Positions 3,124 to 43,101 are shown, numbered from the stretch's first letter. The stretch: DNA of 46,906 nt from an uncultured archaeon (GCA_964508365.1 CAZDTP010000028.1:1-46906), one strand, 5' to 3'. Made by a program: numbers and translations. Notes: generated by a model from the sequence alone, not told the origin.

Positions 3124-3999
3124 TTACAATAAGACGTTTAATATCATTTCTGCGCCACCAGCATTATCTAGATATTCAGCGTTCGATTTTACATCAATGA
3201 ATTTACGCTTATATTCGTTAAAAGGCGTTTTAAGATATTCTTGAATGTGAAGCGCATCGAATGTATATCGATCGTAGCAAGATGTAGGATGAGCTCCAAA
3301 AGGCACTTTCACTACGGCATTGGTTGTTTGCATTGGTAACTGCGCTTTTCCTGGCAGATATCTAATATCTTCTGTTTCAAGTAACCTTTCGCAAATAATG
3401 ATCGTTTTTTTGGCAGTCTTAGCCATATCATCGTCAACCCAAACTGCTCCCGCGATGTTTCCATTACCGTATTGGTCAGCATAAGGGACATGTAGAATAG
3501 CTACATCTAAATCAATTTTAGGTAAGGCCATTAGTTGGGTTCCTGAGCCTAAAGGATCTTCGAATTGTTTTATATCGTTCCTAACTTTAGGGAAATCTGT
3601 GCCTATCATCCCTTTTAATGGCATAAAGGGAACTTTCAAATATGAACTTTTCAATCCTAGAGCGATTGATGCTTCGCTCTCCTCAGAAACTTTTACAGAT
3701 CCCGATTCAACAGCTTTCCTATAATGTGGAGCCATACCAAAAATTTCCATACCTACGAAACAGGCTCTCACTTTAGACGCACAACCTGCAGCTACAAGCA
3801 TATCAATTTCGATCCCTCCAACAAAAGTGCAAAGAGTTAAGTCCTTTTTCTCTTGTCTAATCATTTCTCTACAAGCACTTATAGGTTTTCTCCAAAAAGA
3901 AAGCCCTCCAATTCCAACCAGATCACCATCTTGAACATAAGTAGAAATTGCGTCGTCTAAGGTCATTAATTTACTTTTTTGAATTATTGTTCTCCTCAC
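3124..3999 (-). CDS. Family I CoA-transferase alpha subunit (glutaconate CoA-transferase A-like)
   Basis: LDDAISTYVQDGDLVGIGG, DMLVAAG, VPFMP..G..GTD, HVPYADQYGN and PFGAHPTSC motifs. Confidence 0.85.
   Translation of the reverse strand: MRRTIIQKSKLMTLDDAISTYVQDGDLVGIGGLSFWRKPISACREMIRQEKKDLTLCTFVGGIEIDMLVAAGCASKVRACFVGMEIFGMAPHYRKAVESGSVKVSEESEASIALGLKSSYLKVPFMPLKGMIGTDFPKVRNDIKQFEDPLGSGTQLMALPKIDLDVAILHVPYADQYGNGNIAGAVWVDDDMAKTAKKTIIICERLLETEDIRYLPGKAQLPMQTTNAVVKVPFGAHPTSCYDRYTFDALHIQEYLKTPFNEYKRKFIDVKSNAEYLDNAGGAEMILNVLL
3919..3969 (+). repeat. Dispersed direct repeat, copy 1 (copy 2 at 15501..15551)
   Basis: 43/51 nt identical by manual alignment, with an exact 24-nt core ATCTTGAACATAAGTAGAAATTGC at 3928..3951. 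Confidence 0.85.
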
Positions 4000-4130
4000 T
4001 TCATAGAATATTGAATTTTAGATATTAAAACAATATTTAGAAACAATTTTTGTTATGTTAAAAATATAATATATTAAATTCATTGGAATATAGAAAAAAG
4101 AGGAAATAGAATTTAAAATAATCTATTGAC

Positions 4131-4898
4131 TTAAGTTTTTTTTGCTTTTTCTAATTGCTTCTTTAACTTTACAAAAAATTCTGGTGTTGAAATTTGAAAG
4201 GGTATTGGATATCTAGTACCTGCTTTATGAGTTTTTTCCATACCTTCTATAATTTCGGTAATTATCCCAATTGGTATTGAGGCAATTAAATCCGTATCAG
4301 TTGCCATGCCAAAACGGCGATCGCCAAGACATGGAAACGCAATCTGTAGTTCACCTGTAAGAATGGCATTTGAAATAGTATCGGCACAAACTCCATCACA
4401 AAAAGTTGACATTGAAATTCTCCCCCCTTTTTTCCATAAAGAGCCCTGGATTATTCTCATAATCTGGGCAGAATTACCCCAAATTAGGATTAAATCCGGC
4501 TGAAAATTAATTCGGCTTAAAGCGCCCGAAACTATAGCACTATACTGCCCGAATGGTAATTTTGGCATCGTGGCTGTGGTTTTTTTAGCGGCTTCTTTTG
4601 TTTCATTGTATCGTCCCACGAAAAAAGCGCCCTCTTCGAAAAGTTTATGCGATTTTTCAAATCCAAGAGATATTTCGGCTAAGGGACATAAATTATCCTC
4701 CTTTACACACCCCATTGTCCATCCGTAATACCTAGCATAACTGAATATTTGACAGAGAGCAATTTTTTTATCCGGTTTTTTCAGGAATTCAATGGAATCA
4801 AGTTCATCTAGGGATTCTAATAATTTAACTCCAACTGGGAATGTTGATAGCCTCAGATATTTATTTATTGAATTGTCCAGATTCTCATATTTACTCAT
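4131..4898 (-). CDS. DUF169 family protein
   Basis: LRLSTFPVGVK, ALCQ..SYAR..GW, C.LAEISLG, C.D, and PCLGDRRFG...D.L...IP pattern. Confidence 0.85.
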   Translation of the reverse strand: MSKYENLDNSINKYLRLSTFPVGVKLLESLDELDSIEFLKKPDKKIALCQIFSYARYYGWTMGCVKEDNLCPLAEISLGFEKSHKLFEEGAFFVGRYNETKEAAKKTTATMPKLPFGQYSAIVSGALSRINFQPDLILIWGNSAQIMRIIQGSLWKKGGRISMSTFCDGVCADTISNAILTGELQIAFPCLGDRRFGMATDTDLIASIPIGIITEIIEGMEKTHKAGTRYPIPFQISTPEFFVKLKKQLEKAKKT

Positions 4899-5160
4899 AA
4901 AATCACTAATAACGAATTATATATGCAATATTTTGTCCATCTGTAATATTATTAATTAATGCAACTAACCAATATTAATTCATTAAAAATAAGAATTTGA
5001 ATTAGTTTCCTTAATTTTTTGGGAATGATGTAAATAAAGATAGGTTAGAGGTAAATTAAGGAATGCTCGGTCATTGAAATCACTTGATCTTGGATTTCCT
5101 TTCCTAAATCAAAGATTACTTTAAATAAAAAAGTTAAATGATTTTTATTAAATAAGAGGA

Positions 5161-5301
5161 TCATACGATCTTATAGGAATCATCATCATTTTCTGGAACT
5201 TTTCCCTTTTGAGGGAAAATTTTGTGTCTATGTTTTTTATTCTTTTTTAGAACTACGCCATATTCTTTAACTTCTTGATTATTATCCTTTTTCCTTCCCA
5301 T
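5161..5301 (-). CDS. Putative 46-aa small basic protein missed by the ORF track
   Basis: ATG(5301) to TGA(5161) gives MGRKKDNNQEVKEYGVVLKKNKKHRHKIFPQKGKVPENDDDSYKIV; purine-rich GTGGGG upstream; co-oriented with neighbours. Confidence 0.45.
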   Translation of the reverse strand: MGRKKDNNQEVKEYGVVLKKNKKHRHKIFPQKGKVPENDDDSYKIV

Positions 5302-5363
5302 TTGGATATCCCCACTATACTAAAGTAAAATAGAGTATTTAAAGCTTCTAAATGAATGAAATT

Positions 5364-6470
5364 TTATTTTTTTTGAGCGATCTTTCTTTTCATTATTTTA
5401 TCAAACAGGTCATCCATGGTGGGAAAAGGAATAAATTGTTTATCTTTTTTGTGAAGATTTATTGCGTCCGAAGGACAATGAGCTACACAATTTCCACAAC
5501 CTATACAGCGTTTTTGCTTTATTTTCGCAATGTCATTAATAAGGTTTATTGCTTCCATTGGACAAATTTCGATGCAAGTTTTACATCCAGTACAATACTC
5601 AGCATCAACTTCTGCGTAGTAGTTAGTTATCATCATTTTACCCGGATTAGGAATCTTTAAAAATCTTGATAACCCTTCGCAACAACAGGAGCAGCAAGAA
5701 CAGAGGAATGATAATTTTTGGGAGTTATCTGCCTGAAGTACTAATCCATCTTCTTGATTTTGATTTATTATGTTAATTGCTTCTTCTTTAGTAATTTCAC
5801 GACCCCATCCTTGGTCAATATAAAGCTTTGCGGCATGACCAAATCCCATGCATATTTCTCTGCGAGTAGTAACTTTACAAGGTTGTTCTTCAATATCTTT
5901 TAGTTGTTTACATATACAATTTGCCACCATATAAGGTCCATCAGTAGTTTTTAATAATTCTTGAACCTTATCGAAATTACTGACATTCTGTTCAAATTCA
6001 ATGCTTTTTTCGACAGGTATAGTTCTTAATTGAGCTCCTTTCACTTTCAAGGTTTCAGGAAGCCATCCCTCGTCGAAATAATCGTGAAAATCTTCAATGA
6101 AATCTTTATTGAGCCTGTTTACTTGAAATTCAAAAATGCCTACCATGAGTAAAGCGTTTCCATAATACTTTTGATCTAATTCTTTTTTGGTCATAATAAG
6201 ACCTTTACGACCCATTCTATCTAGTATTATTCCTAATTCTTCTTTTGAAATACTCTTATCATTTACACGCTTGTAAATTGTATCTAATGTTTCGAGATCT
6301 CGTTCCCACCCAAATTTTAAGAGCATGGCAATTTCTGCTTCTTCAGGTGTAAAAAGATGTTTTAATACTCGAATATCAGAACCAGATTCTGTTGATGGAA
6401 AACCAATCGGCATTTTATCCAAATGCTCTTGTAGTTCTCTAAAAACATCTTTTTCTTCACTTTTCGACAT
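5364..6470 (-). CDS. 4Fe-4S dicluster-domain protein with N-terminal winged-helix-like region
   Basis: C-terminal CTGCKTCIEICP and CIGCGNCVAHCP ferredoxin motifs; central NCIC and CSCCSCCC cysteine clusters. Confidence 0.85.
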   Translation of the reverse strand: MSKSEEKDVFRELQEHLDKMPIGFPSTESGSDIRVLKHLFTPEEAEIAMLLKFGWERDLETLDTIYKRVNDKSISKEELGIILDRMGRKGLIMTKKELDQKYYGNALLMVGIFEFQVNRLNKDFIEDFHDYFDEGWLPETLKVKGAQLRTIPVEKSIEFEQNVSNFDKVQELLKTTDGPYMVANCICKQLKDIEEQPCKVTTRREICMGFGHAAKLYIDQGWGREITKEEAINIINQNQEDGLVLQADNSQKLSFLCSCCSCCCEGLSRFLKIPNPGKMMITNYYAEVDAEYCTGCKTCIEICPMEAINLINDIAKIKQKRCIGCGNCVAHCPSDAINLHKKDKQFIPFPTMDDLFDKIMKRKIAQKK

Positions 6471-6531
6471 TTACTCTTCAAATCCTAATAATGATATTTC
6501 CCAAAATATGAAATAAAAATAATAAAATCTT

Positions 6532-7500
6532 TTAAGGGGGATACCTCAATTCATAAATACTTTTTCCACCATTGAGTGGTCCCTTAATATATGGTTCAAT
6601 TTCTTTAGGATTTCTCTGTGTAATTCCTTCTATCGGTGGTAATTTTCCTGGTGGGAATGTTGTTAAAATATCATTAACTAATTTCTCTAAATAATCTAAA
6701 AGTGCTTCCATGCCTGGCTTACCTTTTTCAAAACTACCTTTACTTGGAGATCCTACATGCCCTACAGGATATGCAGCAACTTCAATTGGACCAAATCCTA
6801 CTTGACCATACCATTTAATTGGTTTTTGGTATATATTTCCTGCCTTATCAACATGTCCATCGGGCATCCAACCAACTACTTTATTATCTTCACTAGAATC
6901 AATTTTCTTGATCATTTCTGGAAAAAGCGTCATTGAAAATGAAGTTTCTGCCTCATCTGCATGAACAAAAGGGGTTTCAAAAGGACCTCCATGTTCTTTA
7001 TCCATACAATACTTTGGAATTGCATGATACCAATTAACATTACAAATAACAGCTGGTAATTGATAATTTTTTGCCCATTCATGAATAGCGCTGGGAATTA
7101 CATATTCTTGTCCATGACCATTTAAAAGAATCATTTTTCTAAAACCCATGTTCCATAAACCAGTTATAATCGCACGCAAAAGTCCTTTAAATATTTCTTC
7201 CGGGACAATAATAGTTCCTGGCATTCCCACGTGATGATATGGATGCGAACCGTACCACGTTGGTTGAGCAACTGTGCATCCTGTTTTTTGTGCTACCAAT
7301 TCTGCCATTCTAGTTACAAGAAAGGTATCTTCCCCAATACATGCTGCAGGACCATGATTTTCTGTAGAACCAGTAGGTATAATGATTACATCATTCTTTT
7401 TAACGCGTTCCCGAATTTCAGCAATATTCATATTTTGAAGATATATTCCATCTGCTTTATCAAGGTGACCTTCTTTAGGAGGTAAATTCCATTTACTCAT
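6532..7500 (-). CDS. iolN: 3-dehydro-scyllo-inosose hydrolase (creatininase family)
   Basis: GSTENHGP, GEDTFLVTRMAE, HPYHHVGMPGT, LNGHGQE, NWYHAI, FVHADEAETS and HVDKAGN closely match Thermotoga IolN (TM0413) as I recall it. Confidence 0.88.
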   Translation of the reverse strand: MSKWNLPPKEGHLDKADGIYLQNMNIAEIRERVKKNDVIIIPTGSTENHGPAACIGEDTFLVTRMAELVAQKTGCTVAQPTWYGSHPYHHVGMPGTIIVPEEIFKGLLRAIITGLWNMGFRKMILLNGHGQEYVIPSAIHEWAKNYQLPAVICNVNWYHAIPKYCMDKEHGGPFETPFVHADEAETSFSMTLFPEMIKKIDSSEDNKVVGWMPDGHVDKAGNIYQKPIKWYGQVGFGPIEVAAYPVGHVGSPSKGSFEKGKPGMEALLDYLEKLVNDILTTFPPGKLPPIEGITQRNPKEIEPYIKGPLNGGKSIYELRYPP

Positions 7501-7745
7501 ATTATTTCACATTCAAAAATTAGTTTAACGATTTGGGATAATTCTATTTCGTTAATAAATTTATTAGTCTAATGCATCTTTAACAAAAAGTCGCAACCTC
7601 TAGAATGCACATTGAACCTAGAGATAGGTTGACAGCAATTAAATTATTAACTTTGACCGCTATTAAATTTATTAATACTCCAGAATTGGTTAAAAAAAGT
7701 AATGAAGATATTTGAATAAAGAAATTATTTTATTACTGTTTTTTA

Positions 7746-8990
7746 TTACAGAAATAGCCTCTTTAGATGCCTTTCGTAAATATTTTCAGTAACATTTCGG
7801 GCGATTATCTCATCATACTTTTTTAAGGTTTTTATATAGCGGGAACCCATTTCCGCAGCAATTTTATATCCTACATGGAGCAATTGTCGAAAATTTCGAT
7901 TGTAATCTTTGCAAGATAAGTCATGTCGCAAAGCTCTACTGTATTCTTCACTAGTCCAATTTTTTACTATTTCAGGATAAGGTAATTTATCCTTATTAAT
8001 ATCTATTACTGTGGCGTATGGTGTACACAACTCATCGAATCGACCGTGAGCCTTAATATAGATCTCTTTGGCGATTTCTAGTCCCTCATCTCCCGCCATG
8101 GCTAAACCAATTAACTCCTCCAACCAAGTAGTTCCCGAAGTTTTTAAATGAATCCCTGTGTTATATTTTTTAATCGCTTTATTAATAATGTTATATATTG
8201 AGAATTTATCACTTCCCGAGTGAAGGCTTAATTTTAAATTATCAGGTAAGGAGAATTTTTTTTTCGCAAATTGGATTAGGGCTAAGATAATCTCTAGTTC
8301 TTCGGAAAAATGCTCAATATTTCCTTCATAATCAACGCCTTTATTAAATCTACCTGAAAATTTAGGAGCTATCGTTTGAATAGGAATCTTTTCATCAGCT
8401 ATAGCAGCAAGAATAAACAATATTTCAATTGGTGCTTGAGGTTCGTTCGTTTCGTCCATCGAAATTTCAATTATGTAATTATCCTTACCTTTGCTCTTCT
8501 CAATCTTGCGATACACCCTTCCTGCTTCCTTTACAGCATAAAGATATTTTTCTGCAATTGCTCTTAATTGCTCTTTGTTGATCCTTAAAGGTTCCTTGAT
8601 ATTTGAAATGAATAATTTTCCTATGAGATTTTCATACTTCTCGACAAATGTGTTTATCTCGGCTTCAGATGCCTTTTCATTAATAAATTCAGCTACATCA
8701 ATTGTAAAATAATTACTCGAATCAATAAATAAATCAATATTAGAAATTCCGATGTGATCGGCGTCGATATAATAATTACCTTTCCAATTTAAATCTCTCA
8801 CTGCATTTTGAGCTTCTTTTAAAACATCAGCAGGAGTAGATTTAGTGACTAGATGCTCCCGGTGAGATTTATTCCACACGATTGCGATATCAACATCATT
8901 CTCTTGTGCTTTAATGATCGCTTTCAATTGAGCCTTTCCTTGGCAACCAAACCTATCTCCAGTACCAATTGAATATTTTTTTAGTCTCAT
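7746..8990 (-). CDS. uxaE: D-tagaturonate/D-fructuronate epimerase
   Basis: GTGDRFG, IDADH, EISMDET, APKFSGRFNKGVDY, SLHSGSDKFSIY and HLKTSGTTWLEEL motifs; located in a hexuronate cluster. Confidence 0.9.
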   Translation of the reverse strand: MRLKKYSIGTGDRFGCQGKAQLKAIIKAQENDVDIAIVWNKSHREHLVTKSTPADVLKEAQNAVRDLNWKGNYYIDADHIGISNIDLFIDSSNYFTIDVAEFINEKASEAEINTFVEKYENLIGKLFISNIKEPLRINKEQLRAIAEKYLYAVKEAGRVYRKIEKSKGKDNYIIEISMDETNEPQAPIEILFILAAIADEKIPIQTIAPKFSGRFNKGVDYEGNIEHFSEELEIILALIQFAKKKFSLPDNLKLSLHSGSDKFSIYNIINKAIKKYNTGIHLKTSGTTWLEELIGLAMAGDEGLEIAKEIYIKAHGRFDELCTPYATVIDINKDKLPYPEIVKNWTSEEYSRALRHDLSCKDYNRNFRQLLHVGYKIAAEMGSRYIKTLKKYDEIIARNVTENIYERHLKRLFL

Positions 8991-9025
8991 TATTAAGATA
9001 CACTTATCTCTTGAATTCTTTATAA

Positions 9026-10429
9026 TTATAACATTTTAAAATAGTCGATGGCATTATTATAGCAAATATTTTCAATTAGATTTCCTAGAAAATCTATTTC
9101 ATTAGGAATTTCTCCATTTTCAACCTCAGATCCAATCAAGTTGCACAATATTCTACGAAAATATTCGTGCCGAGGATAGGATAAAAAGCTTCGGGAATCC
9201 GTAGTCATACCAATAAAACGACCCAACAATCCTAGATTAGATAATGTGTTAATTTGCTTAGTTATTCCATCAATTTGATCCAAAAACCACCAACTAGGTC
9301 CAAATTGCATTTTCCCAGGATAAGAACCATCTTGAAAACTGCCAATAATAGACGCTATTAATTCGTTGTCTCGAGGGTTTATATTATAAAAAATAGTTTT
9401 GGTAAGCTCTCCAGATTGATCAAGTCTGTCGAGAAATTTAACCAATTTATTTCCAAAAGTATTGTCACCAATAGAATCGCATCCTATATCGGGTCCAAGT
9501 TTATTGAATAATCTTGTATTAGTGTTACGAAAGGGTCCAATATGAAATTGCTGGACCCAACCACGATTGTAATTCAATCTAGCGCATTCGTATAAAAGAG
9601 CTGATTTGAATTTTGATACTTCTCCTTGAGTTAATTCATTTCCTGAGAGAATATTAACTGTTATTTTTTCAATTTCATCATTAGTATAAGCTTCAGTCCA
9701 AAAAGACAAGATTCCATGATCAGCAATTCGACATCCCATATTATGAAAAAGTTTATGGCGAACATTTAATGCTTCAAGTAAACTCGTAAAGTCTTTTATT
9801 TCGATCCCCGAGATTTCGCTTAATTTAATAATATATTTAATATATGAAGTAGTATTTTCTACTGCCATTGCTTTGTCTGGTCGAAATGTAGGCAGTACTT
9901 TAACTTTATAGCCATCTTCCTTGATTTTTTTGTGATATTCTAAAGAATCAATAGGATCGTCTGTTGTACAAATAAGTTTTACATTCATTTTAAGAAGCAA
10001 ATTCCTAACAGAATAATCTGGTTCTTGGAGCAGAATAGAACATTGATTATAAATTTCATTGCAATTTTTTGAGCTTAATATAGTATCTATATTAAAATAC
10101 CTCTGAAGTTCTAAATGGGTCCAATGATAAAGTGGATTGCGAATTGCCATTGGAACCGTTTCTGCCCATTTTACAAATTTTTCAAAATCAGTAGCATTAC
10201 CAGTGCAGAATTTCTCAGCTATCCCGTTGCTACGCATTAATCTCCATTTATAGTGATCTCCAGCTAGCCAAGCTTGTCCTATATTATCATAACAAATATC
10301 CTCAGCTAATTCTCTCACTGGTAGGTGACAATGATAATCAAAAATTGGCATCTTTTCGGCGAATTCATGATATAAATTCCTTGCTGTTTCCGTTTGTAAA
10401 AGAAAATTCTCATCTAAAAATTTTTTCAT
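9026..10429 (-). CDS. uxaC: Uronate (glucuronate) isomerase
   Basis: DYHCHL, GDHYKWRLMR, GNPLYHWTHLEL-like segment, TTDDP, QFGPSWWFLD and GMTTDSRSFLSYPRHEYFRR. Confidence 0.96.
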   Translation of the reverse strand: MKKFLDENFLLQTETARNLYHEFAEKMPIFDYHCHLPVRELAEDICYDNIGQAWLAGDHYKWRLMRSNGIAEKFCTGNATDFEKFVKWAETVPMAIRNPLYHWTHLELQRYFNIDTILSSKNCNEIYNQCSILLQEPDYSVRNLLLKMNVKLICTTDDPIDSLEYHKKIKEDGYKVKVLPTFRPDKAMAVENTTSYIKYIIKLSEISGIEIKDFTSLLEALNVRHKLFHNMGCRIADHGILSFWTEAYTNDEIEKITVNILSGNELTQGEVSKFKSALLYECARLNYNRGWVQQFHIGPFRNTNTRLFNKLGPDIGCDSIGDNTFGNKLVKFLDRLDQSGELTKTIFYNINPRDNELIASIIGSFQDGSYPGKMQFGPSWWFLDQIDGITKQINTLSNLGLLGRFIGMTTDSRSFLSYPRHEYFRRILCNLIGSEVENGEIPNEIDFLGNLIENICYNNAIDYFKML

Positions 10430-10450
10430 CTATTTTATTCACCATTTATG

Positions 10451-11503
10451 CTAATTTTTCTGAAGAGTTTTGCTTATTCCTTCCCAAAGACCTTCAAGAT
10501 ACGTAACACCTAAAGCTCGATCATATAATCCATATCCCGGTCTTCCTGTTTCCCCCCATATCATCCTTCCATGGTCAGGGCGTATAACTCCATCAAATCC
10601 AATATCTATTAATGCTTTTACCACTTCATACATGTTCACGTCCCCAAATTCTGTAGGATGCTCACTTTCATAAAACTTTTTCCCTTCAATATGTTTAACA
10701 TTTCGAAAATGTATGAATGGAATACGATCTAACGCACCAAATTTTCGAATAGCTTTTACAAGATCCATTTTTAAATTTGCACCAAAAGATCCTGTACAAA
10801 AAGTAATACCATTTGAGGGACTATCTATAATTCTAACCAAACGATCTAAAGCAACCTCATCAGTAATTATCCGAGGAAGACCAAAAATTGACCATGGAGG
10901 ATCATCTGGATGAATAGCCATTTTTACTCCATATTCTTCAGCAACAGGGATTACTTTTTTCAAGAAATATTCTAAATTTAACCAAAGTGTTTCATTATCA
11001 ACTTTGGAATAAGCTTTCAAGTAATTTTGCATTTCTTCTTTTGTATATTTGGTTGCCCAACCTGGAAGATCTAATGAAATTTTCTTAAAATCAATCTCTT
11101 TAAGTTTAGAATCATCATAACTCAAGCTATTAGATCCGTTGGGATATTTCATTGCTAAATCAGTACGCACCCAGTCAAAAACGGGCATAAAATTATAGCA
11201 TAAAATTTGAATTCCTACAGAACCCATATTTCGGATGCTTTGGCAATAATTATCGATTAGAATATCTCGATTTGAATTACCAAGCTTAATATCTTCATGA
11301 ACAGGGATACTCTCAATCACCGAAAATTTTAATCCTTCTGCTTCGATCTTTTTTTTAATGTATTTTATTTTATCTATTGCCCAAATCTCTCCTACAGCAA
11401 CATCATATAATGCTGAAACAATACCGGTGACTTTAGGAATCTGTTTTATGTATTTGAGAGGGATGTGATCTTTATCTCCATACCATCGAAATGCTATTTC
11501 CAT
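10451..11503 (-). CDS. uxuA: Mannonate dehydratase
   Basis: FRWYG, ESIPVHEDIKLG, CYNFMPVFDW.RT, IHPDDPPW, CTGSFG and RPDHGRMIWGE..RPGYGLYDRALG. Confidence 0.96.
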   Translation of the reverse strand: MEIAFRWYGDKDHIPLKYIKQIPKVTGIVSALYDVAVGEIWAIDKIKYIKKKIEAEGLKFSVIESIPVHEDIKLGNSNRDILIDNYCQSIRNMGSVGIQILCYNFMPVFDWVRTDLAMKYPNGSNSLSYDDSKLKEIDFKKISLDLPGWATKYTKEEMQNYLKAYSKVDNETLWLNLEYFLKKVIPVAEEYGVKMAIHPDDPPWSIFGLPRIITDEVALDRLVRIIDSPSNGITFCTGSFGANLKMDLVKAIRKFGALDRIPFIHFRNVKHIEGKKFYESEHPTEFGDVNMYEVVKALIDIGFDGVIRPDHGRMIWGETGRPGYGLYDRALGVTYLEGLWEGISKTLQKN

Positions 11504-11536
11504 TATTACAATACCTTATTATTTAGATCTTAAATT

Positions 11537-12394
11537 TTAAACTCCAGAATACGCAGAAAATCCCCCATCAACAGGAACAATAATACCATTAACGAAACCA
11601 GAAGCTTTTTCATCAATAAGCCAAAGAAGTGTTCCAATCAGTTCTTCTGGTTTCCCAAATCTTCCTATAGGAGTTTGGTTTAATATCTTATTTGCTCGTT
11701 CTGTAAAGGAACCATCTTCATTAGTCAAGAGAGAACGATTTTGTTCTGTTAAAAAAAAACCTGGTGCAATCGCATTCACACGAATGCCCACTTTGGAAAA
11801 ATAAACTGCAAGCCACTGAGTAAAATTACTAACAGCTGCCTTTGCTCCACTATAGGCAGGTATCTTTGTCAATGGTGTAAAGGCGTTCATTGATGAAATA
11901 TTAATAATTATAGCACCTTTTTGATTTACCATTTGTTTCGCAAAAACTTGAACGGGTAAGAACGTACCAATAAAATTTAAATTAAATACGAATTCGATGC
12001 TTTCTTGATTTAAATCAAAAAAAGTTACGAGTCCTTCCCTTTCACTGTCCAAGTCATCTAGAGTTAAGAATTCGTTTGAGGTTGTTCCTTTTGGATGGTT
12101 CCCTCCAACTCCATTAATGAGGATATTACAAGGACCAAATTCTTTTCCAATTACCTCTTCAGCTTTTCGTAAACTCTTAAGATTTAAAACATTTACTTCA
12201 ATTCCAATGGCAATTCCTCCATTTTCATTAATCTTACTTGCCACTTTATCCGCAGCTTCTTTTCGTATGTCAAGTATTGCTACTTTTGCGCCACATTTTG
12301 CAAGAGCCTCAGAAAAGCATCCACATAATTCTCCTCCACCACCAGTTATCACGGCAGTTCTATCTTTCAAATCAATCATAAATGGGAATTTCAT
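11537..12394 (-). CDS. uxuB: SDR-family D-mannonate oxidoreductase (fructuronate reductase)
   Basis: TGGGG, NGVGGNHPKGTT, ISSMNAFTPLTKIPAYSGAK (YxxxK), RVNAIAPGFF and VDGGFSAYSGV; adjacent to uxuA. Confidence 0.88.
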   Translation of the reverse strand: MKFPFMIDLKDRTAVITGGGGELCGCFSEALAKCGAKVAILDIRKEAADKVASKINENGGIAIGIEVNVLNLKSLRKAEEVIGKEFGPCNILINGVGGNHPKGTTSNEFLTLDDLDSEREGLVTFFDLNQESIEFVFNLNFIGTFLPVQVFAKQMVNQKGAIIINISSMNAFTPLTKIPAYSGAKAAVSNFTQWLAVYFSKVGIRVNAIAPGFFLTEQNRSLLTNEDGSFTERANKILNQTPIGRFGKPEELIGTLLWLIDEKASGFVNGIIVPVDGGFSAYSGV

Positions 12395-12440
12395 TACTAT
12401 TTCCTAAACTATATCTATCATTATATCAGTAGAATTAACT

Positions 12441-13619
12441 TTAATCGATTATAACAGAAATTTTGCAATTTTCTTTATCTTTTTGTAATAACTTTAGATT
12501 TTCTGGGACTTCTTTCATTGTTATTTCTTTTGTAATCAAAGGAGTAACATCCATACCAGCAGCCATACTGCTGATAACATTAGGAAAAGTACCATGACCT
12601 GAATGTCCTTGAGCTCCAACTATTCGAGCTCTTCTTACTTGAAAATATTCACCACACACTGGCATTCTCTGTTCTGCTCTAGCAACAATCACCACAGTAC
12701 TGTTTATTGTTTTACATTCCCAAATAGCATTTTGTATATCTTCCGTTACTATTTCAGGTAAACCTGTGGCTTCAAGATATAGTACAGCTCCTTCATTGTC
12801 TGTGTATTCTTTAACTTTTTCTACGAAATTTTCCTTTAGAGGATTAATCACATAATCAGCGCCCATTTTCTTAGCTAATACTGCTCGAGATTCTTCGGGT
12901 TCTGAAATAATACATGTCGCAGATCCCGCAGTTTTTAAAATCTTTACTGCTGCCAATCCGATTGGTCCTGCACCTAAAATCACCACATTTTCACCGGGTC
13001 GAATTCCACCACCTCTTTCTATTACGGCATTATAGGCTACTGATGTAGGTTCCACCAAACTGCCTATTTTGTAAATGTCCTTATATTTTTCTTCTAATTT
13101 TTTCAAGCTCCAACATAATTTTGCAGGAACAGCGATATATTCTGCAAATGCTCCATTTATGGAAAAACCAATTTCTTCTAATCGTTCACAGTGATTTGGA
13201 TATCCATCGCAACATGGTTTACATTCACCACACCAGACCATTTCTTCTGCAGTTACAGGTTCTCCTTTCTCGAAAAGTTTGCTTGTTCTTTTATTTATTG
13301 CCCTGCTGCCTACTTCCACAACCTCTCCAGAAAATTCATGACCAAGAGTAGCTGGAAATGCCGTTAATCCAGGATAATAGATATATCCATCATCATAACT
13401 TTGGTTCATATGTACATCAGAACCACAAATTCCACATCTCTTCACTTTGATTAATACTTCGTTTGGTTTTATTTGAGGTTTTTCTTTTTCTATTACTTTA
13501 ACAATAGGATGTCGCCATACCTGAGAACCTAAATAGGTTAATTTACCATCAATATCTTTAGATCCAAGTTTAAAATTAGGTTTTGGATCCCAATTCGCAG
13601 ATAATTCTACTACTTTCAT
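12441..13619 (-). CDS. iolM: scyllo-inosose 3-dehydrogenase (Zn-dependent MDR family)
   Basis: WDPKPNFKLGSKDIDGKLTYLGSQVWR N-terminus, CGICGSDVH, LGHEFSG, CGECKPCCDGYPNHC and GAQGHSGHGTFP match Thermotoga IolM (TM0412) as I recall it. Confidence 0.9.
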   Translation of the reverse strand: MKVVELSANWDPKPNFKLGSKDIDGKLTYLGSQVWRHPIVKVIEKEKPQIKPNEVLIKVKRCGICGSDVHMNQSYDDGYIYYPGLTAFPATLGHEFSGEVVEVGSRAINKRTSKLFEKGEPVTAEEMVWCGECKPCCDGYPNHCERLEEIGFSINGAFAEYIAVPAKLCWSLKKLEEKYKDIYKIGSLVEPTSVAYNAVIERGGGIRPGENVVILGAGPIGLAAVKILKTAGSATCIISEPEESRAVLAKKMGADYVINPLKENFVEKVKEYTDNEGAVLYLEATGLPEIVTEDIQNAIWECKTINSTVVIVARAEQRMPVCGEYFQVRRARIVGAQGHSGHGTFPNVISSMAAGMDVTPLITKEITMKEVPENLKLLQKDKENCKISVIID

Positions 13620-13803
13620 TTTTTTTATAATCTCATTATTCTGTTTTTGATTAAATTAATCACGAGATCATAATAAGGTTATTGAACTTAAGGAAGATCA
13701 AATTATTAACCAAAAAAAAACTAAGAAATTTAATTATCTACTAATATTTTTAATAGTTAATATCTACTAAATTCTTTAATTATACTAAATAAATGTTCAA
13801 AAT

Positions 13804-14616
13804 ATGTTGCTCAGTATAGTTTCAGGGTTAAATGAATCCAAGAGTAATCTAAAAGAGGTAATTAAGAAATTTTCTTCTTTGTGTCAATTACTGAAATCCT
13901 TTAATTACAATGGGATTGAGTTAAGCCTTCTAGAACCAGAAAAAATTGATGTTAAGAAAATTGTAGAGATAAAAGATTCATATGGAATGGAGATTCCTGC
14001 TTTAGGTACTGGAAGTACTTTTATTCGTTTTGGATACTCTTTTGGGGATACCCAAAATTCTATTCGCAAAAAGGCGATTGAAAGGATGGAGAAATATATT
14101 GAATTTGCTCGAGAAACCCAATCTAAGGTCATTATAGGATTAATTAGAGGGCGTTATAAACATGATAGCAGTCCTCAAAATGAACAACTAAATATTATCT
14201 CTTCTCTTAAAGAATGTTGCTCGTTAGCAGAAAATAATAACGTACAACTATTATTTGAACCAATTAATCGTTTTGAAATTGACTCCTACAATACAATTTC
14301 GGAAACAGTAGATTTAATTGAAGAAATAGGTTCGAATAACTTGAAGTTATTAGTTGACTCTTTTCATACATACCTAGAAGAAGATCCTGCATATATATGG
14401 GAATATCTTAAAGATATTGCTCATTATGTAGGACATATTCATCTAGCAGACACTACACGCAGAGCACCAGGTTCAGGACATTTTGATTTCAAAACTTTTT
14501 TAAATATTTTTAAAAATTTAGGATATACCGAATTTGTTTCAGTTGAAACAATTATGAAACCTTCTTTTGAAATAATAGCTAAAAACTCAGCTGAATATCT
14601 GAGAACAATTTTATAA
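13804..14616 (+). CDS. iolO: 5-keto-L-gluconate epimerase-like sugar epimerase (AP-endonuclease-2 TIM barrel)
   Basis: IPALGTG, RKKAIERM, VIIGLIRG, FEPINRFE, DSFH, HIHLAD..RRAPGSGHFDF and VSVE (metal ligands E, D, H, E); divergent from iolM. Confidence 0.78.
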   Translation: MLLSIVSGLNESKSNLKEVIKKFSSLCQLLKSFNYNGIELSLLEPEKIDVKKIVEIKDSYGMEIPALGTGSTFIRFGYSFGDTQNSIRKKAIERMEKYIEFARETQSKVIIGLIRGRYKHDSSPQNEQLNIISSLKECCSLAENNNVQLLFEPINRFEIDSYNTISETVDLIEEIGSNNLKLLVDSFHTYLEEDPAYIWEYLKDIAHYVGHIHLADTTRRAPGSGHFDFKTFLNIFKNLGYTEFVSVETIMKPSFEIIAKNSAEYLRTIL

Positions 14617-14643
14617 TTTCTCTCAAGAAAAAGAAAAGGAAAA

Positions 14644-15480
14644 TCAAATATGTTTATCTAACCAATTACTAAGATCATTGAGAACTTTCTCTCTTTCTTC
14701 CTTTATTTCATTATAAACTTCATGATATAATCCTTCATAAATAAGAATAGTTTTATCTTCCATATTGAAAGCTTTTCGGAGTAATTCTTCAGATCCTTTA
14801 ATAAGAGAATCTTCAGCACCACACTGAACCAATAAGGGTAATTTTAGGGTGCTTGTAATTGAGTTATATTTTTCAAAGTTGTTCATTAATTCCCATCCCA
14901 ATCGTATTGTAATTTTATCAGCATTAACTAAAGGATCGTTTTCATATGCATGTATAACCTCAGAATCATGGCTTAACTTATCAGCCTTAAGTCCCGGATT
15001 TATATATTTTTTTGGTGTAATTTTTGCTAATAGTTTTACTATCAGTTTTAGGGTTTTACTTGTACTCTTTCCCGCTCCTGTACCAGTACCTGATAAAATC
15101 AATCCTCTTAACAAGGTTTCATAATTTTTTGTAAAAACTAAAGCAATCATAGAACCCATAGAATGTCCTAACATAAAAATTGGTAAATTATGATGATTAT
15201 TCTTTATTAAATCATATAATATTTTTTCGTCCTCAATATACTGATCGAAATTATCAACATAATTTCTTTTTCCATCAGACTTTCCATGACCACGGTGATC
15301 ATTTGCATATATCACATACCCTAAGGGTGTTAATTGATTTACAACATTCAAATATCTTCCTGAGTGTTCAGCAAATCCATGTACAATCTGAATCACTGCT
15401 TTAGGTTTTTCAGGTATCCATACCTGATAAAAAATCTTTAAATCCTCTACCCCGCTATACTCTCCTTCGATATGTTCCAT
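14644..15480 (-). CDS. Alpha/beta hydrolase, lysophospholipase/monoacylglycerol lipase family
   Basis: VHGFAEHSGRY, DHRGHGKS, nucleophile motif GHSMG, and YHEVYNE. Confidence 0.9.
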   Translation of the reverse strand: MEHIEGEYSGVEDLKIFYQVWIPEKPKAVIQIVHGFAEHSGRYLNVVNQLTPLGYVIYANDHRGHGKSDGKRNYVDNFDQYIEDEKILYDLIKNNHHNLPIFMLGHSMGSMIALVFTKNYETLLRGLILSGTGTGAGKSTSKTLKLIVKLLAKITPKKYINPGLKADKLSHDSEVIHAYENDPLVNADKITIRLGWELMNNFEKYNSITSTLKLPLLVQCGAEDSLIKGSEELLRKAFNMEDKTILIYEGLYHEVYNEIKEEREKVLNDLSNWLDKHI

Positions 15481-15494
15481 TTTTTCATCACAAT

Positions 15495-15594
15495 TTAAAT
15501 CAGATTACAATCTTGAACATAAGTAGAAATTGCATGTTCTAATGTCAATAGTAACCATTTTTGCTCTGTTAAAAATATTGTTGACGAACCCCAT
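15495..15594 (-). pseudogene. Frameshifted, truncated 5' remnant of a CoA-transferase alpha gene
   Basis: One frame reads LLTLEHAISTYVQDCNLI* versus LMTLDDAISTYVQDGDLV in 3124..3999; ATG at 15594 is in another frame. Confidence 0.7.
15501..15551 (+). repeat. Dispersed direct repeat, copy 2 (copy 1 at 3919..3969)
   Basis: Exact 24-nt core at 15510..15533, same orientation as copy 1. Confidence 0.85.
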
Positions 15595-15698
15595 ATTAAT
15601 AGATTTATTATGATGGTTTTTAATTGATTAAGTATTACATCATAATATAGTAAGCTTAGAGGTAACATATTATTAGAAAAAGATTAAAACAAGGACTA

Positions 15699-16205
15699 GT
15701 GCAAGTTTATTTTGGTCGGGGCAAGGGTAAGACCACTGCAGCTATAGGACAAGGTATTCGGGCTATAGGGCATGGATTTAAGGTATATATGATTCAATTC
15801 ATGAAAGGATATCCTCAATATGGAGAAGTTAACGCTATAGAGAATACATCTAACTTCGAACTGAAACAGTTTGGCACGCCAGACTTAATAACAATTCCAG
15901 GAGATATTGATTTTGAAGAGGGAAGAAAAGGCATGGAGTTTGCAGAGAAAATAATTATGTCCGACGAATATGACATAGTAATTCTTGATGAGATAGGGGT
16001 AGCGGTTGAGTATGGGATTGTAAAAATCGACGAGGTGTTAAAATTAATTGATAATAAACCCTTTCATGTCGAATTAATCATAACCGGAGGTCCTAAGATG
16101 CATCCAAAAATCAAAGAACGAGCAGATTTGCTTACTGAGATGAGAATGATCAAACATTACTATTCCTCAAAAGGTATTAAAGCTCGCTTAGGTATAGAAC
16201 ATTAA
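15699..16205 (+). CDS. cobO: Cob(I)alamin adenosyltransferase (CobO/BtuR); true start may be ATT at 15669 or 15672
   Basis: QVYFGRGKGKTTAAIG, IQFMKG, ILDEI and LIITG...ADLLTEMR..KH motifs; in-frame upstream RKRLKQGL. Confidence 0.92.
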   Translation: MQVYFGRGKGKTTAAIGQGIRAIGHGFKVYMIQFMKGYPQYGEVNAIENTSNFELKQFGTPDLITIPGDIDFEEGRKGMEFAEKIIMSDEYDIVILDEIGVAVEYGIVKIDEVLKLIDNKPFHVELIITGGPKMHPKIKERADLLTEMRMIKHYYSSKGIKARLGIEH

Positions 16206-16214
16206 AAAAAATCA

Positions 16215-17387
16215 GTGCGTTTACAAATGCGTTTTAAGACAATCATTTATTCACTAATCTTAAAGTTCCATAAATTCAAACTTAAAGATGCCGTTATAGA
16301 TCATCACAGATATCTTGGCAAAAGCGAAAACTCGCTTAATATTTATGATAAGCCACCTAGAAATATGATCTTATCCCCTTTTAATCTAATTTTTGAACCG
16401 ATGGATCGATTGCTTCTGATTAATTTTGAAGAAGACCCTTTATATTATGGCATTGAGCTCCAAGTCTTACATAAAGCAGATGAATTCTACCCGCTAGTAA
16501 TCATGTATCGAAAAGATGACCTAATAGATCTCTATTATACGAATGAAACAGTCATTTTGGATAGAAAGAAAATGATTACGGATTTACTAAATAATACCTC
16601 CTTCAACCACCTAGAATCTATAGACTATAAATTCGATATTGACGAGATGGGCTTGAATGCTTATCTTTTCTTAAAAGATAAGTTGGAAAATAAAGTTGAA
16701 TTCAGAATTAAAGAGAATACTCTTGGTAGAGAATTAACTGCGATTTTAGCACCTATAAGTGCAGTTAGCAAGAACCCTCAATATTTTCCCATTGTTTACC
16801 TTAATAAATTTAGTATGGTTATCAAAAAAGCTACGGATATCTTTGTTAAAATTGATGAGGATTTAAAAAAACCAGCGGAATTGCCTGTAAAAATAGATAA
16901 TCAAAATTTTTATTTAGCTAGATATTCTTTGGATCCAATAAATTGTAATTGGAATAGATCTTATACTGGAAATTTAAATCCTATATTATTACACACAGAT
17001 AATAACGATATAATAAAAGAAAATTTAACGTATGAGATATTGAACAATAATGGATATTTCGAAATTAAAAAAGTAATAGGAGTAGATGAGCGAAAACATT
17101 CTATATCTTTTGAATTTTCTCCCGCTATTCCCAATTTATTATCTCTTAAATCTGGTATGGAGATGAAAGGAAAATTTTCTTTGATTATAGGCAAAAAAAA
17201 GGGGATATTTGCTGGAGTTTATCATATTAATAGAAAAAAAGAAAAAATTACTTTTATTATCCAACCTACTAAAGGTTGGCAACCATTTCCCGGAAAATTA
17301 TGGTTAAAAACATATAAATGGGTTGCGAATATCGAGGTCTTAGAAGATTTTGAATTTAAGATTCACTCACATTGGACTCGTGTGTAA
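16215..17387 (+). CDS. Hypothetical protein
   Basis: 390-codon ORF directly after cobO; no motif recognised. Confidence 0.7.
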   Translation: MRLQMRFKTIIYSLILKFHKFKLKDAVIDHHRYLGKSENSLNIYDKPPRNMILSPFNLIFEPMDRLLLINFEEDPLYYGIELQVLHKADEFYPLVIMYRKDDLIDLYYTNETVILDRKKMITDLLNNTSFNHLESIDYKFDIDEMGLNAYLFLKDKLENKVEFRIKENTLGRELTAILAPISAVSKNPQYFPIVYLNKFSMVIKKATDIFVKIDEDLKKPAELPVKIDNQNFYLARYSLDPINCNWNRSYTGNLNPILLHTDNNDIIKENLTYEILNNNGYFEIKKVIGVDERKHSISFEFSPAIPNLLSLKSGMEMKGKFSLIIGKKKGIFAGVYHINRKKEKITFIIQPTKGWQPFPGKLWLKTYKWVANIEVLEDFEFKIHSHWTRV

Positions 17388-30411: not shown

Positions 30412-30414
30412 TTT

Positions 30415-31731: not shown

Positions 31732-31765
31732 TCCTTATCTTTTTTTCACATAAAATAAATAAACA

Positions 31766-32947: not shown

Positions 32948-33005
32948 TTCGAAATTAAAAGAAATTATTTGTCACCTTTAGTTTTTTTTATATTTTATCT
33001 TATAA

Positions 33006-36651: not shown

Positions 36652-36836
36652 AAAATCACTTATTTGTTTATATAAATATATTTTGTAAGTAATATATAAG
36701 TGTTATTTAGATAGATATGGAAAGTAATCTTAAAAATAAGTAATACGCAGATAATATCATCAGAATATGTGAAAGTTTGAAGATTCCTTAACTTCATACA
36801 ATGCCGACAAAAATCTATGCTCGCATAATTTAGTTA

Positions 36837-37688: not shown

Positions 37689-37782
37689 GACATAAAAATA
37701 ATCCTAATATATATTTAAAAATTCTCTATTTCAGATAAAATAGAATTTTATTCCTTTTAATTAAATTCCTTATAGTTGAATT

Positions 37783-40799: not shown

Positions 40800-41583
40800 T
40801 CAGAAGCGTCTTTCTTGTCGTGGTCTTGTATATCGCATATCATATTTTTTGGGTAGATTTTTTCTGGTTTTGGTATAAGAAAATATTGCGTTTTGATATT
40901 TAAATCGTAGGTCGCTACAAAATTCTGATGGAAATAACATTATTTAAAGAAAAATGTGCGACAAGAAAGTCTTATGTCCGAATAAAGGACTTGAAAAGAA
41001 AGAAACATAAAGGTGATTTTCAAAAACTGGTATTGAGATGACCGATAATGGCTACCCAAACATGCATCGTTAGTAATGATGGTGTGTGAAGCTTTGGGGA
41101 AAATGTACCTTCAGCATTTAGCTATAAAGTGGTCTGAGGGGCTAGCCAAGGAGCCTAAGGGAAACTAACGTGAAGGTGCGATAAACCTCGTTATTAAAAA
41201 TCGGCGAAATGTAGCTGATACGCCGAGACCAAAAAGGTGAGTTGCCGGGTAGAAATGGTATTTTTTCATTTCTTTGTCATCCATTGCGCAACCGGGGGAA
41301 AGTGCCTCCCTAAGGGCTCTGCTGAACATCGGATATAAGGAACTTGGTAAACCCAATAAGTCCCATATATGTATGTGTTATGGTATCCTGACCGTGAGGA
41401 AAGGTGAAGATTTAGTGGGCAGAGGATGCTGGAGAAAGCGAATGCCATGCTGTAATGGTATGGATAGGGCTGTAGTCTTGGTTGAACTACAGAGATACCC
41501 AACTTGAAAGGGTGCTGACTTCCTAAACAGGTCTCAACGAAAGAAACATATTGAAAAATCTTAACTGGAGGTGAAGTTAGACG

Positions 41584-43083: not shown

Positions 43084-43101
43084 TCGATGGTTTTGAGGCG
43101 C

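Follow-up and report, generated by a model that had tools for sequence, protein, structure and literature searches.

Here we address whether an archaeon can hold, at one chromosomal site, the genes for an inositol ring-opening route together with those for hexuronate breakdown, and where such an arrangement would have come from. The question is raised by a 46,906-nt stretch of DNA from an uncultured archaeon (hereafter the window), in which homologues of iolM, iolN and iolO are interleaved with uxaE, uxuB, uxuA and uxaC. We consider it probable that this locus is a genuine archaeal catabolic island that joins two modules, each of which is already present in Lokiarchaeia.

Seven genes of one predicted pathway lie within 8 kb

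All seven ORFs listed in a preliminary description of the sequence (iolM/N/O, uxaE, uxuB, uxuA and uxaC) are intact, and the identities, order, coordinates and strands given for them were right (Table 1). The layout it reported, a tight same-strand iolM-uxuB-uxuA-uxaC-uxaE run followed by iolN, with iolO divergent, is borne out by the spacing on the minus strand, with gaps of 46 nt (iolM-uxuB), 33 nt (uxuB-uxuA), 21 nt (uxuA-uxaC) and 35 nt (uxaC-uxaE), then 245 nt (uxaE-iolN); the divergent iolM/iolO gap measures 184 nt. Because seven genes of the same pathway fall within 8 kb and recur in the same layout in three further genomes (see below), a chance grouping can be set aside. In profile searches, curated cutoffs were passed by six of the seven genes, IolO being the exception.

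Table 1. Features of the island and its right junction, in window coordinates.
Feature	Position	Strand	Predicted product or remark
Whole island, ~9.1 kb	6471..15597		Between the start of the ferredoxin-domain (Fer4) gene and the cobA upstream region
iolN	6532..7500	-	3-dehydro-scyllo-inosose hydrolase, creatininase fold; NF041098
Conserved 31-nt element	7538..7568		38-68 nt upstream of the iolN start; holds the palindrome TAATAAATTTATTA
uxaE	7746..8990	-	Tagaturonate/fructuronate epimerase, short 414-aa form; PF16257
uxaC	9026..10429	-	Uronate (glucuronate/galacturonate) isomerase; NF002794, PF02614
uxuA	10451..11503	-	D-mannonate dehydratase; TIGR00695, PF03786
uxuB	11537..12394	-	SDR-type D-mannonate (fructuronate) oxidoreductase; NF006132
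iolM	12441..13619	-	scyllo-inosose 3-dehydrogenase, Zn-dependent MDR; NF041097; first of the five-gene run
Divergent iolM/iolO intergenic region	13620..13803		Presumed promoters both ways
iolO-like	13804..14616	+	5-keto-L-gluconate epimerase candidate; xylose-isomerase-like TIM barrel
Accessory alpha/beta-hydrolase (Hydrolase_4, lysophospholipase-like)	14644..15480	-	PF12146, 227 bits
Orphan CoA-transferase gene fragment (duplicated 5' end plus upstream region)	15491..15578	-	Right junction, directly upstream of the hydrolase gene

IolN matches its model NF041098 in full (positions 1-307 of 307) at 509 bits, the cutoff being 245, and is predicted to open the ring of the diketo-inositol by hydrolysis. 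IolM scores 500.5 bits against NF041097 (cutoff 450) and aligns over residues 2-390 with the T. maritima protein of PDB entry 3ip1 (4e-170, ~64% identity). The third protein failed the equivalog test, with 232 bits against NF041099, below the 300-bit cutoff, and is therefore labelled IolO-like. Its top match among solved structures is T. maritima TM0416 (2zvr; 1e-42, the runner-up being at 5e-17), and alignment to 2zvr revealed that the TM0416 motifs E-P-x-N-R, D-x-F-H, H-x-H-x-A-D and S-V-E are kept. The residues concerned (Glu; Asp and His; His; Glu) are those that we take to be the Mn ligands of the epimerase superfamily. Moreover, an iolO-like gene adjoins iolN in most of the best 80 loci from genome_contigs and in 34 of 40 Asgard loci. 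The structure match, the motifs and the conserved iolN/iolM neighbourhood together argue for a putative IolO where the profile score makes only a weak call.

For the hexuronate enzymes, UxaC reached 614 bits against NF002794 (cutoff 387) and 671 bits against PF02614 (positions 1-464 of 464), UxuA 396 bits against TIGR00695 (cutoff 200) and 476 bits against PF03786 (positions 1-352 of 352), and UxuB 439 bits against NF006132 (cutoff 281), far ahead of the second-ranked SDR model (161 bits). UxaE scored 203 bits against PF16257 (gathering score 27.1) over profile positions 78-475 only, and none of the NCBIfam models matched it. At 414 aa it is missing the first ~90 residues and departs from the full-length architecture of characterised enzymes (~480-490 aa). 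This short form is common to Planctomycetota proteins of 414-416 aa, and the canonical long UxaE occurs in genus g11 (599 bits). The window UxaE matches Cohnella UxaE (6il9) at 3e-24, and in the 6il9 alignment it keeps the equivalents of Glu126 and Asp159 (within S-x-R-E and D-x-D-H), the proposed catalytic residues of the Cohnella enzyme (PMC11194214). On the family match and these conserved residues, the window protein is a predicted UxaE of a short subfamily.

The island sits in an archaeal backbone at a fixed site

The host is a Loki-type member of the Promethearchaeota from salt-marsh sediment, in agreement with the Asgard affiliation that the preliminary description had deemed likely: homologues of the encoded proteins are named Promethearchaeota or Lokiarchaeota, and the contig also carries a HerA-Mre11-Rad50 block. 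The assembly has no SSU rRNA, and the host is therefore classified by how homologous proteins are named. A bacterial-archaeal chimera had been named as one finding that would overturn the case, i.e. an assembly or binning artefact that puts a bacterial sugar-acid fragment on an archaeal contig. All seven enzymes are indeed of bacterial type, with nearest non-Asgard relatives that are 62-69% identical, but archaeal backbone flanks the island on both sides in two separate assemblies (the window genome and G236), and the same backbone synteny is found in at least ten congeners. Window-identical contigs from another run span the right junction as well as internal gene junctions, bridging iolN-uxaE-uxaC, uxuB-iolM and iolO-hydrolase-cobA; GC is uniform (0.31-0.34), and IolN and UxaC fall into Asgard-specific clades. 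Synteny, bridging contigs, clades and GC exclude a chimera, leave an artefact with a negligible probability and mean that this reading is effectively already refuted.

Comparison with congeners revealed a composite island at one fixed chromosomal site, present in some and absent from others. Seven sampled congeners have an empty site in otherwise identical backbone synteny, with either DUF169 (G249, G243, G247 and G235) or DUF169-Fer4 (G250, G246 and G241) adjoining CobA. A marine-sediment contig from another study also represents the empty site, with position 4781 joined to 15598, and this contig and blastn set the right boundary at 15598. The left boundary would lie at 6471, with the Fer4 gene taken as part of the backbone. 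Within the island the hydrolase gene is a variable part: G000 and G236 (89%) have it, whereas in G253 it is missing and iolO abuts cobA.

The orphan CoA-transferase fragment is part of direct repeats between 3909-3981 and 15491-15563 (73 nt at 79%, including an exact 24-mer) and between 4038-4067 and 15549-15578 (87%). The orphan repeat occurs only in the island-bearing G000 and G236 and at none of the empty sites. We rejected the direct repeat as the bracket of an island that includes DUF169, since empty sites have DUF169 (and in some cases Fer4) but lack the orphan copy; the repeat marks the right junction only. The patchiness of the island may reflect repeated loss or lateral spread, and the flank tree fits either.

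The fusion was assembled from parts native to the family

Of the 399 genomes of this phylum (Asgard), 83 encode an IolN that scores above the model cutoff; among other archaea, iolMNO is found in Bathyarchaeia and Nitrososphaerota, and NCBI already names the IolM/N/O proteins. The presence of iolMNO in archaea is not rare; what is rare is its fusion with the uxa/uxu block. Among 40 sampled Asgard IolN loci, 39 have a compact iolN/iolO/iolM cluster without uxa/uxu and one (G236) is fused, and inspection of UxaC loci added the fused G253 and G244. The survey across Asgard genomes that the preliminary description had proposed thus finds the fusion in, so far, four genomes of one genus (the window, G236, G253 and G244), with the layout kept at 80-96% protein identity and recurring in a population, ~95% alike, that was sampled in a separate study. 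The uxuB-uxuA-uxaC-uxaE block is free-standing, in the same gene order, in three genomes of the sister genus g12 (G216, G185 and G225). Of the IolN loci in genome_contigs, which number at least 576, we inspected the best 80 (74 from bacteria, the others from archaea) and found neither uxaC nor uxuA within 10 kb of IolN. What the data show is the identity of the genes, their layout and distribution, the empty sites and, by the trees described next, where the parts came from.

Trees were built for IolN, UxaC and the flank, with the nearest bacterial relatives assessed by identity ranking only. Per-gene phylogenies had likewise been proposed, and those for IolN and UxaC yielded Asgard-specific clades: the fused-type IolN clade (96*) branches from within the compact-type IolN proteins of its own genus, and the fused-type UxaC clade (99*) is sister to the free-standing g12 block, represented by UxaC of G185. 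As the iol genes thus group within the genus and uxaC next to the block of the sister genus, the fusion arose by assembly within Asgard rather than by arrival from bacteria in one piece. A census of the genus found UxaE in 5 of 42 genomes and IolN in about three quarters; with UxaE scarce and IolN common, the fusion adds a follow-on step that is missing in most relatives.

These data bear on the suggestion that the route is undescribed in archaea. Our literature search found no paper describing it in Asgard archaea, which upholds one part, but databases already name its genes and iolMNO is present in a substantial set of Asgard genomes (83/399). The pathway is known and the fused layout is rare.

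Intergenic elements and transcription

In the 245-nt gap between uxaE and iolN, G236 conserves solely the 31-nt element (94%), a candidate promoter or operator of iolN; its palindrome TAATAAATTTATTA has a second copy at 7661-7674. The iolM/iolO intergenic region, 87% identical over 174 nt in G253, holds two copies of the direct repeat TATCTACTAA and is presumed to contain promoters facing both ways. These regions are AT-rich, and repeat and palindrome searches in them yield candidates only. The 245-nt gap and the divergent iolO imply at least three transcription units, with iolN probably forming one of its own, and they count against taking co-regulation of the island for granted. RNA-library contigs falling on iolN, uxuB and iolM (7 of 30 bins covered, in a run that may contain DNA) give a weak hint that these genes are transcribed.

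A proposed route from inosose and uronates to KDG

All of the enzymatic steps below are inferred from this gene set, as are the operon structure, the substrates and where the inosose comes from. The first module would be the compact iolN/iolO/iolM cluster of the family, specifying the Thermotoga-type inositol ring-opening route: IolM would oxidise scyllo-inosose to 3-dehydro-scyllo-inosose, IolN would open the ring hydrolytically to 5-keto-L-gluconate and IolO would epimerise the latter to D-tagaturonate. The second would be the four-gene uxuB-uxuA-uxaC-uxaE block that stands alone in the sister genus, with UxaE predicted to convert tagaturonate to fructuronate, UxuB to reduce fructuronate to mannonate and UxuA to dehydrate mannonate to KDG, while UxaC would admit glucuronate as fructuronate and galacturonate as tagaturonate. 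In a sublineage of one genus the second module lies between iolM and iolN. The five genes iolM-uxuB-uxuA-uxaC-uxaE are probably transcribed together, and iolN and iolO would each have a separate promoter. An unlinked PfkB kinase would phosphorylate the KDG, and cleavage would fall to the Eda aldolase, of which the genome has only one. Eda (270 bits, cutoff 241) is encoded on contig C36, unlinked and inside another sugar module; the KdgK candidate, a PfkB protein on C7 and likewise unlinked, falls short of the cutoffs of NF041633 (518 bits, to the kinase half of the model) and NF041332 (215 bits). The top PfkB match was rejected as KdgK, being a ribokinase. A UxaB/UxaA altronate route is not evident in the genome: the sole UxaA-family gene, a split SAF + GD_AH form, lies beside AOR and LUD genes and has no UxaB next to it.

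The preliminary description proposed that one locus would funnel inositols and both uronates into KDG, and this reading is supported, with caveats. The gene families for all steps from inosose to KDG, and UxaC, are in place, but the island contains neither an inositol 2-dehydrogenase (IolG) nor a transporter, and inositol entry is not encoded in it. The genome's Gfo/Idh/MocA proteins reach at best 157 bits against TIGR04380, whose cutoff is 355 (three similar paralogues, on contigs C7, C1 and C85, are at ~150), and no Gfo/Idh/MocA paralogue lies beside the iol genes in 40 Asgard loci; the MFS gene close to the island is part of the backbone, and empty sites have it too.

This gap would suit an island that is essentially a hexuronate operon, in which the IolM/N/O-like enzymes do not act on inositol but supply tagaturonate from some other precursor, such as 5-keto-L-gluconate (from L-sugar acids) or an inosose of non-inositol origin. 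IolG or an inositol transporter is neither found in or near the island nor assigned in the genome, and inositol use needs no UxaC. Conversion of 5-keto-L-gluconate to tagaturonate also ends a Luteolibacter L-glucose/L-galactose route (PMC12632266). Such an operon is nevertheless unlikely: IolM and IolN exceed equivalog cutoffs trained on inositol enzymes, IolM very closely resembles its T. maritima counterpart, the M/N/O trio is kept as a unit in many phyla, and 5-keto-L-gluconate as the sole input would make IolN and IolM superfluous. We consider it very unlikely that the uxu block came to lie between iolM and iolN by chance, with both modules regulated and used independently. That iolN and iolO retain upstream regions of their own (gaps of 245 nt and 184 nt), that the island is patchy among congeners and that the hydrolase and orphan gene fragment mark a recombination-prone site would all accord with adjacency of no functional meaning, but the predicted IolO product is the UxaE substrate, iolM and uxuB are just 46 nt apart on the same strand, and the layout is kept in the four genomes (80-96% protein identity) and in the ~95%-alike population sampled elsewhere. 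It is also conceivable, if improbable, that the island is a self-contained exchangeable cassette, spread among Lokiarchaeia by homologous recombination at one site, whose inositol arm would serve the cell's own inositol compounds. If so, Asgard archaea would lengthen a pathway by operon fusion of parts circulating in the family, and a eukaryote-like inositol-phosphate system would be tied to central carbon metabolism.

The island of two joined modules, our preferred reading, leaves the range of known pathway kinds unchanged. The proposed drainage of the Thermotoga-type inositol route into the hexuronates at tagaturonate has rested mainly on one bacterium with scattered genes, and physical fusion, with iolM 46 nt from uxuB, lends independent genomic-context support to the tagaturonate junction; the short UxaE subfamily is likely the outlet of the inositol route. 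For Asgard biology, the locus offers a concrete, dated case of pathway assembly, from family-native parts that were fused in one genus into a composite that is polymorphic at a fixed site, and it hints at the use of plant-derived uronates and cyclitols by Lokiarchaeia of salt marshes.

Comparison with known systems

In T. maritima the iol regulon (IolR) is separate from the uxa/uxu regulons (PMC3750489), which confirms for this species the earlier statement that Thermotoga keeps these genes at separate loci. The sets comprise IolG, IolM, IolN and IolO on the one hand and, under UxaR/KdgR, uxaE, kdgA-kdgK-uxuB-uxuA and uxaC on the other, as given where PMC3750489 cites Rodionova et al. 2012, 2013. 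Every step from inosose to KDG involves the same enzyme families as in the island, but T. maritima has them in scattered loci and regulons, whereas the window has them in one island, in an archaeal host and without linked IolG, IolR or ABC transporter. The UxuB of T. maritima is a member of the mannitol-dehydrogenase family; the window UxuB, in contrast, is SDR-type, and its UxaE is of the short form.

The compact clusters of Lokiarchaeia, which are common in the window's own family, carry iol genes orthologous to those of the window (79-90% identity), but with iolO between iolN and iolM, without uxa/uxu and at other chromosomal sites, in G261 for example beside genes for an MFS transporter and a second Zn-ADH. 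The g12 block (G216, G185 and G225) has the window's four genes in the same order at 64-80% identity and no adjacent iol genes, its neighbours in G216 being GH57 genes, an MCP-domain gene and another alpha/beta-hydrolase gene. Partial linkage of the inositol route to its tagaturonate outlet is seen in bacterial hosts, as an adjacent uxuB-like and uxaE-like pair at Pseudothermotoga iol loci (L091, L096 and L099) and as iolN-iolO-uxaE-like at Chloroflexota loci (L048, L050, L054 and L066); the UxaE-like proteins of both are 25-30% identical to the window UxaE. With the classical hexuronate isomerase pathway of E. coli and B. subtilis the window has UxaC, UxuB and UxuA in common, as full-length matches, but tagaturonate is handled there by UxaB/UxaA and in the window, as predicted, by UxaE.

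The inositol-hexuronate gene set

All seven genes that the preliminary description had called at this locus were recovered intact, with identical coordinates and strands, and its tight one-strand iolM-uxuB-uxuA-uxaC-uxaE run, followed by iolN and with iolO divergent, was likewise borne out: on the minus strand the gaps from iolM to uxaE are 46, 33, 21 and 35 nt, followed by 245 nt to iolN, and 184 nt separate iolM from the divergent iolO. IolM matches T. maritima structure 3ip1 at 4e-170. For the IolO-like protein, which scores below its model cutoff, the top hit among solved structures is T. maritima TM0416 (2zvr, 1e-42), with other sugar epimerases far behind (5e-17); the Glu, Asp/His, His and Glu motifs are kept in the alignment to TM0416, and such a gene adjoins iolN in the majority of loci examined in bacteria and Asgard archaea. 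The 414-aa UxaE lacks ~90 N-terminal residues of characterised enzymes and keeps, in the alignment, the equivalents of Glu126 and Asp159, the proposed catalytic residues of Cohnella UxaE (PMC11194214).

Features, locations and model matches (coordinates are those of the window unless another contig or locus is named)
Feature	Location	Model	Score (bits)	Cutoff (bits)
IolN	window	NF041098	509	245
IolM	window	NF041097	500.5	450
UxaC	window	NF002794	614	387
UxuA	window	TIGR00695	396	200
UxuB, SDR-type	window	NF006132	439	281
UxaE	window	PF16257	203	27
IolO-like	window	NF041099	232	300
CoA-transferase 5' end / direct repeat	3909-3981 / 15491-15563			
CoA-transferase upstream piece / recurrence	4038-4067 / 15549-15578			
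DUF169-Fer4 backbone pair	4131-6470			
Inserted segment	~6471-15597			
Orphan copy	15491-15578			
Last ~100 nt before cobA	15598-15694			
X3 contigs, iolN-uxaE-uxaC	7477-9829			
X3 contigs, iolO-hydrolase-cobA	13642-16216			
HerA to Rad50-like run	28306-34754, minus strand			
Group II intron	41042-43177			
Reverse-transcriptase/maturase ORF	41767-43083			
Split UxaA-family dehydratase	G000:C29 ~36739-38213 (L184 6740-8214)			
Long-form UxaE (scored) with adjoining UxaC, genus g11	G174:C301:24752-27595; G170:C129:996-3827	PF16257	587-599	
Compact iol cluster, genome G261	L109 14873-17264			
Divergent second UxaC type	L154, L155, L157, L161, L162, L156 (G132, G278, G275, G280, G134, G116)			

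If the proteins catalyse the reactions on which their matched models are defined, IolM, IolN and IolO would convert scyllo-inosose to D-tagaturonate, UxaE, UxuB and UxuA would carry D-tagaturonate to KDG, and UxaC would add glucuronate and galacturonate as inputs. The proposal that one locus funnels inositols and both uronates into KDG is supported from scyllo-inosose onwards, as the predicted enzymes would span scyllo-inosose and the uronates to KDG; the island has no transporter and the genome no assigned IolG. The genome search for IolG returned only three Gfo paralogues, at ~150 bits against a cutoff of 355, no such paralogue lies beside the iol genes in relatives, and the nearby MFS gene was not counted as an island transporter because it belongs to the backbone shared with congeners. 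The genome has one Eda aldolase (contig C36, 270 bits against a cutoff of 241) and a KDG-kinase-like PfkB below equivalog cutoffs (contig C7), and no altronate route is evident in it. Elsewhere in the genome a split UxaA-family dehydratase (96-aa SAF and 395-aa GD_AH proteins) adjoins aldehyde:ferredoxin oxidoreductase and LUD/CCG lactate-utilisation-like genes. In the compact iol cluster of G261, a genome of the same genus, an MFS transporter gene precedes iolM, with iolM facing a second gene for a Zn-dependent dehydrogenase; the two might act in uptake and first oxidation, and neither is present in the window's island.

RNA-library contigs fall on iolN, uxuB and iolM, which is only a hint that the island genes are transcribed. 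Upstream of iolN, at 38-68 nt, lies a 31-nt element that contains the palindrome TAATAAATTTATTA and is conserved in island-bearing genome G236; it would fit a separate iolN promoter.

Host and contig integrity

The preliminary description had regarded the host as a likely Asgard archaeon, and this is upheld by near-identical homologues named Promethearchaeota, Lokiarchaeota, Hermodarchaeota or Helarchaeota and by a block on the same contig comprising HerA (DUF87), an unassigned 393-aa ORF in the NurA position, a Mre11-like phosphoesterase and a Rad50-like ATPase in a single run, which is a typical archaeal end-resection operon. The assembly (4.07 Mb, 149 contigs, completeness 100%, contamination 3.65%) contains no SSU rRNA. 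A bacterial-archaeal chimera, against which the early reading had cautioned, is effectively ruled out: the flanking order (ThrS, HomDH, ACT, CoA-transferase, DUF169, then cobA, orf390, MaoC, MFS, thiolase, OB-fold, M28) recurs in at least 10 congeners, GC is even along the contig (0.31-0.34), and the salt-marsh metagenome X3 holds contigs identical to the window that bridge genes within the island as well as its junction with cobA. Local GC reaches 0.41 at a group II intron (Rfam domains D1-D4 and D5/6) with an internal reverse-transcriptase/maturase ORF.

A polymorphic island beside cobA

Seven congeners have an empty site at this position, with either DUF169 (G249, G243, G247, G235) or DUF169-Fer4 (G250, G246, G241) adjoining cobA, and these sites delimit the inserted segment. 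It comprises iolN to iolO plus an alpha/beta-hydrolase gene in the window's genome (G000) and G236, the hydrolase being absent in G253. The stretch that follows it, up to cobA, matches the empty-site intergenic region at 92-95%, and in marine-sediment data of another study one contig joins position 4781 to 15598; the same run also holds ~95%-alike contigs spanning uxuB and iolM. In the four-gene flank tree the island-bearing genomes form two clades with empty-site genomes between them, so that either multiple precise losses or lateral spread into one and the same site would be required.

A 73-nt stretch within the CoA-transferase gene, at its 5' end, recurs near the right edge of the island at 79% identity and includes a 24-mer that is repeated exactly; a piece from upstream of that gene recurs there too. 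Target duplication bracketing DUF169 was rejected as an explanation of this direct repeat, since DUF169 is also present at empty sites, while the orphan copy is absent from these and confined to G000 and G236, which carry the island. The copy is read as a right-junction scar; it carries the promoter region of the CoA-transferase gene together with its first ~25 codons, sits directly before the start of the hydrolase gene, and may also supply the latter with a promoter, resembling promoter capture.

The neighbouring DUF169 and Fer4 genes form a variable backbone pair. The 368-aa Fer4 protein has two 4Fe-4S motifs and an N-terminal 280 aa without assignment; its gene is present in G000, G255, G250, G246 and G241 and absent from G236, G249, G243, G247 and G235, and in G000 it follows iolN on the same strand after a gap of 61 nt.

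Distribution and origin of the fused layout

Of the phylum's 399 genomes, 83 encode an IolN that scores above cutoff, and almost all of these belong to the window's own family. The Asgard survey that the preliminary description had suggested found the fused layout in four genomes of one genus (G000, G236, G253, G244) and the compact iolN/iolO/iolM layout, free of uxa/uxu genes, at 39 of 40 sampled Asgard IolN loci. UxaC occurs in 33/399 Asgard genomes, and UxaE in 27/135 genomes of the family and only 5/42 of the genus. Sister genus g12 (G216, G185, G225) has a stand-alone uxuB-uxuA-uxaC-uxaE block in the gene order of the window. In genus g11 a canonical long-form UxaE adjoins a UxaC only 54% identical to the window's, constituting a second, independent uxaC-uxaE pairing in the family.

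Gene phylogenies, also proposed at the outset, were obtained for IolN (142 rows) and UxaC. Fused-type IolN forms a supported clade (96) nested within its genus among the compact-type sequences, both types lying inside family (99) and Asgard (98) clades. The fused-type UxaC clade (99) is sister to the stand-alone block of G185 (94), and is nearest neither to the lone UxaC of its own genus nor to bacteria. By identity ranking rather than tree, the closest non-Asgard relatives are Bacillota for IolN (~69%), Marinilabiliales (Bacteroidota) for UxaC (~63%) and Planctomycetota for the short UxaE (62-64%). The fusion was thus put together inside Lokiarchaeia, out of components that were already present in the group. 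IolN from one Asgard lineage (G003/LC30), from Bathyarchaeia and from Nitrososphaerota (L005/L086, L061, L064, L092, L085) forms a second archaeal clade apart from the main Asgard clade, which suggests a separate archaeal acquisition. A very divergent second UxaC type, sharing 33-37% identity with that of the window, makes up a deep clade of its own within the order.

Comparison with known systems

Across a species-representative genome collection, IolN occurs in at least 576 loci from many bacterial phyla and from Bathyarchaeia, Nitrososphaerota and Hermodarchaeota. Among the best 80 of these, iolM, iolN and iolO make up the conserved core, at no locus does uxaC or uxuA occur within 10 kb, and partial linkage is confined to Pseudothermotoga, with a uxuB-like and uxaE-like pair, and to some Chloroflexota or Aerophobetes, with a uxaE-like gene. 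In Pseudothermotoga (L091, L096, L099) SDR-type uxuB-like (48%) and uxaE-like genes lie just upstream of iolM, so that partial linkage of iol genes to their outlet exists in Thermotogota other than T. maritima.

The pathway itself is already known, and several of these Asgard proteins have been named by NCBI; our literature search found no paper on this inositol route, or on mannonate/galacturonate catabolism, in Asgard archaea. What is new are variants of the known pathway, namely the archaeal operon fusion, its family-internal origin and its presence/absence polymorphism. As the preliminary description had stated for Thermotoga, the iol and uxa/uxu genes of T. maritima belong to separate regulons (PMC3750489), whereas in the window they share one island.
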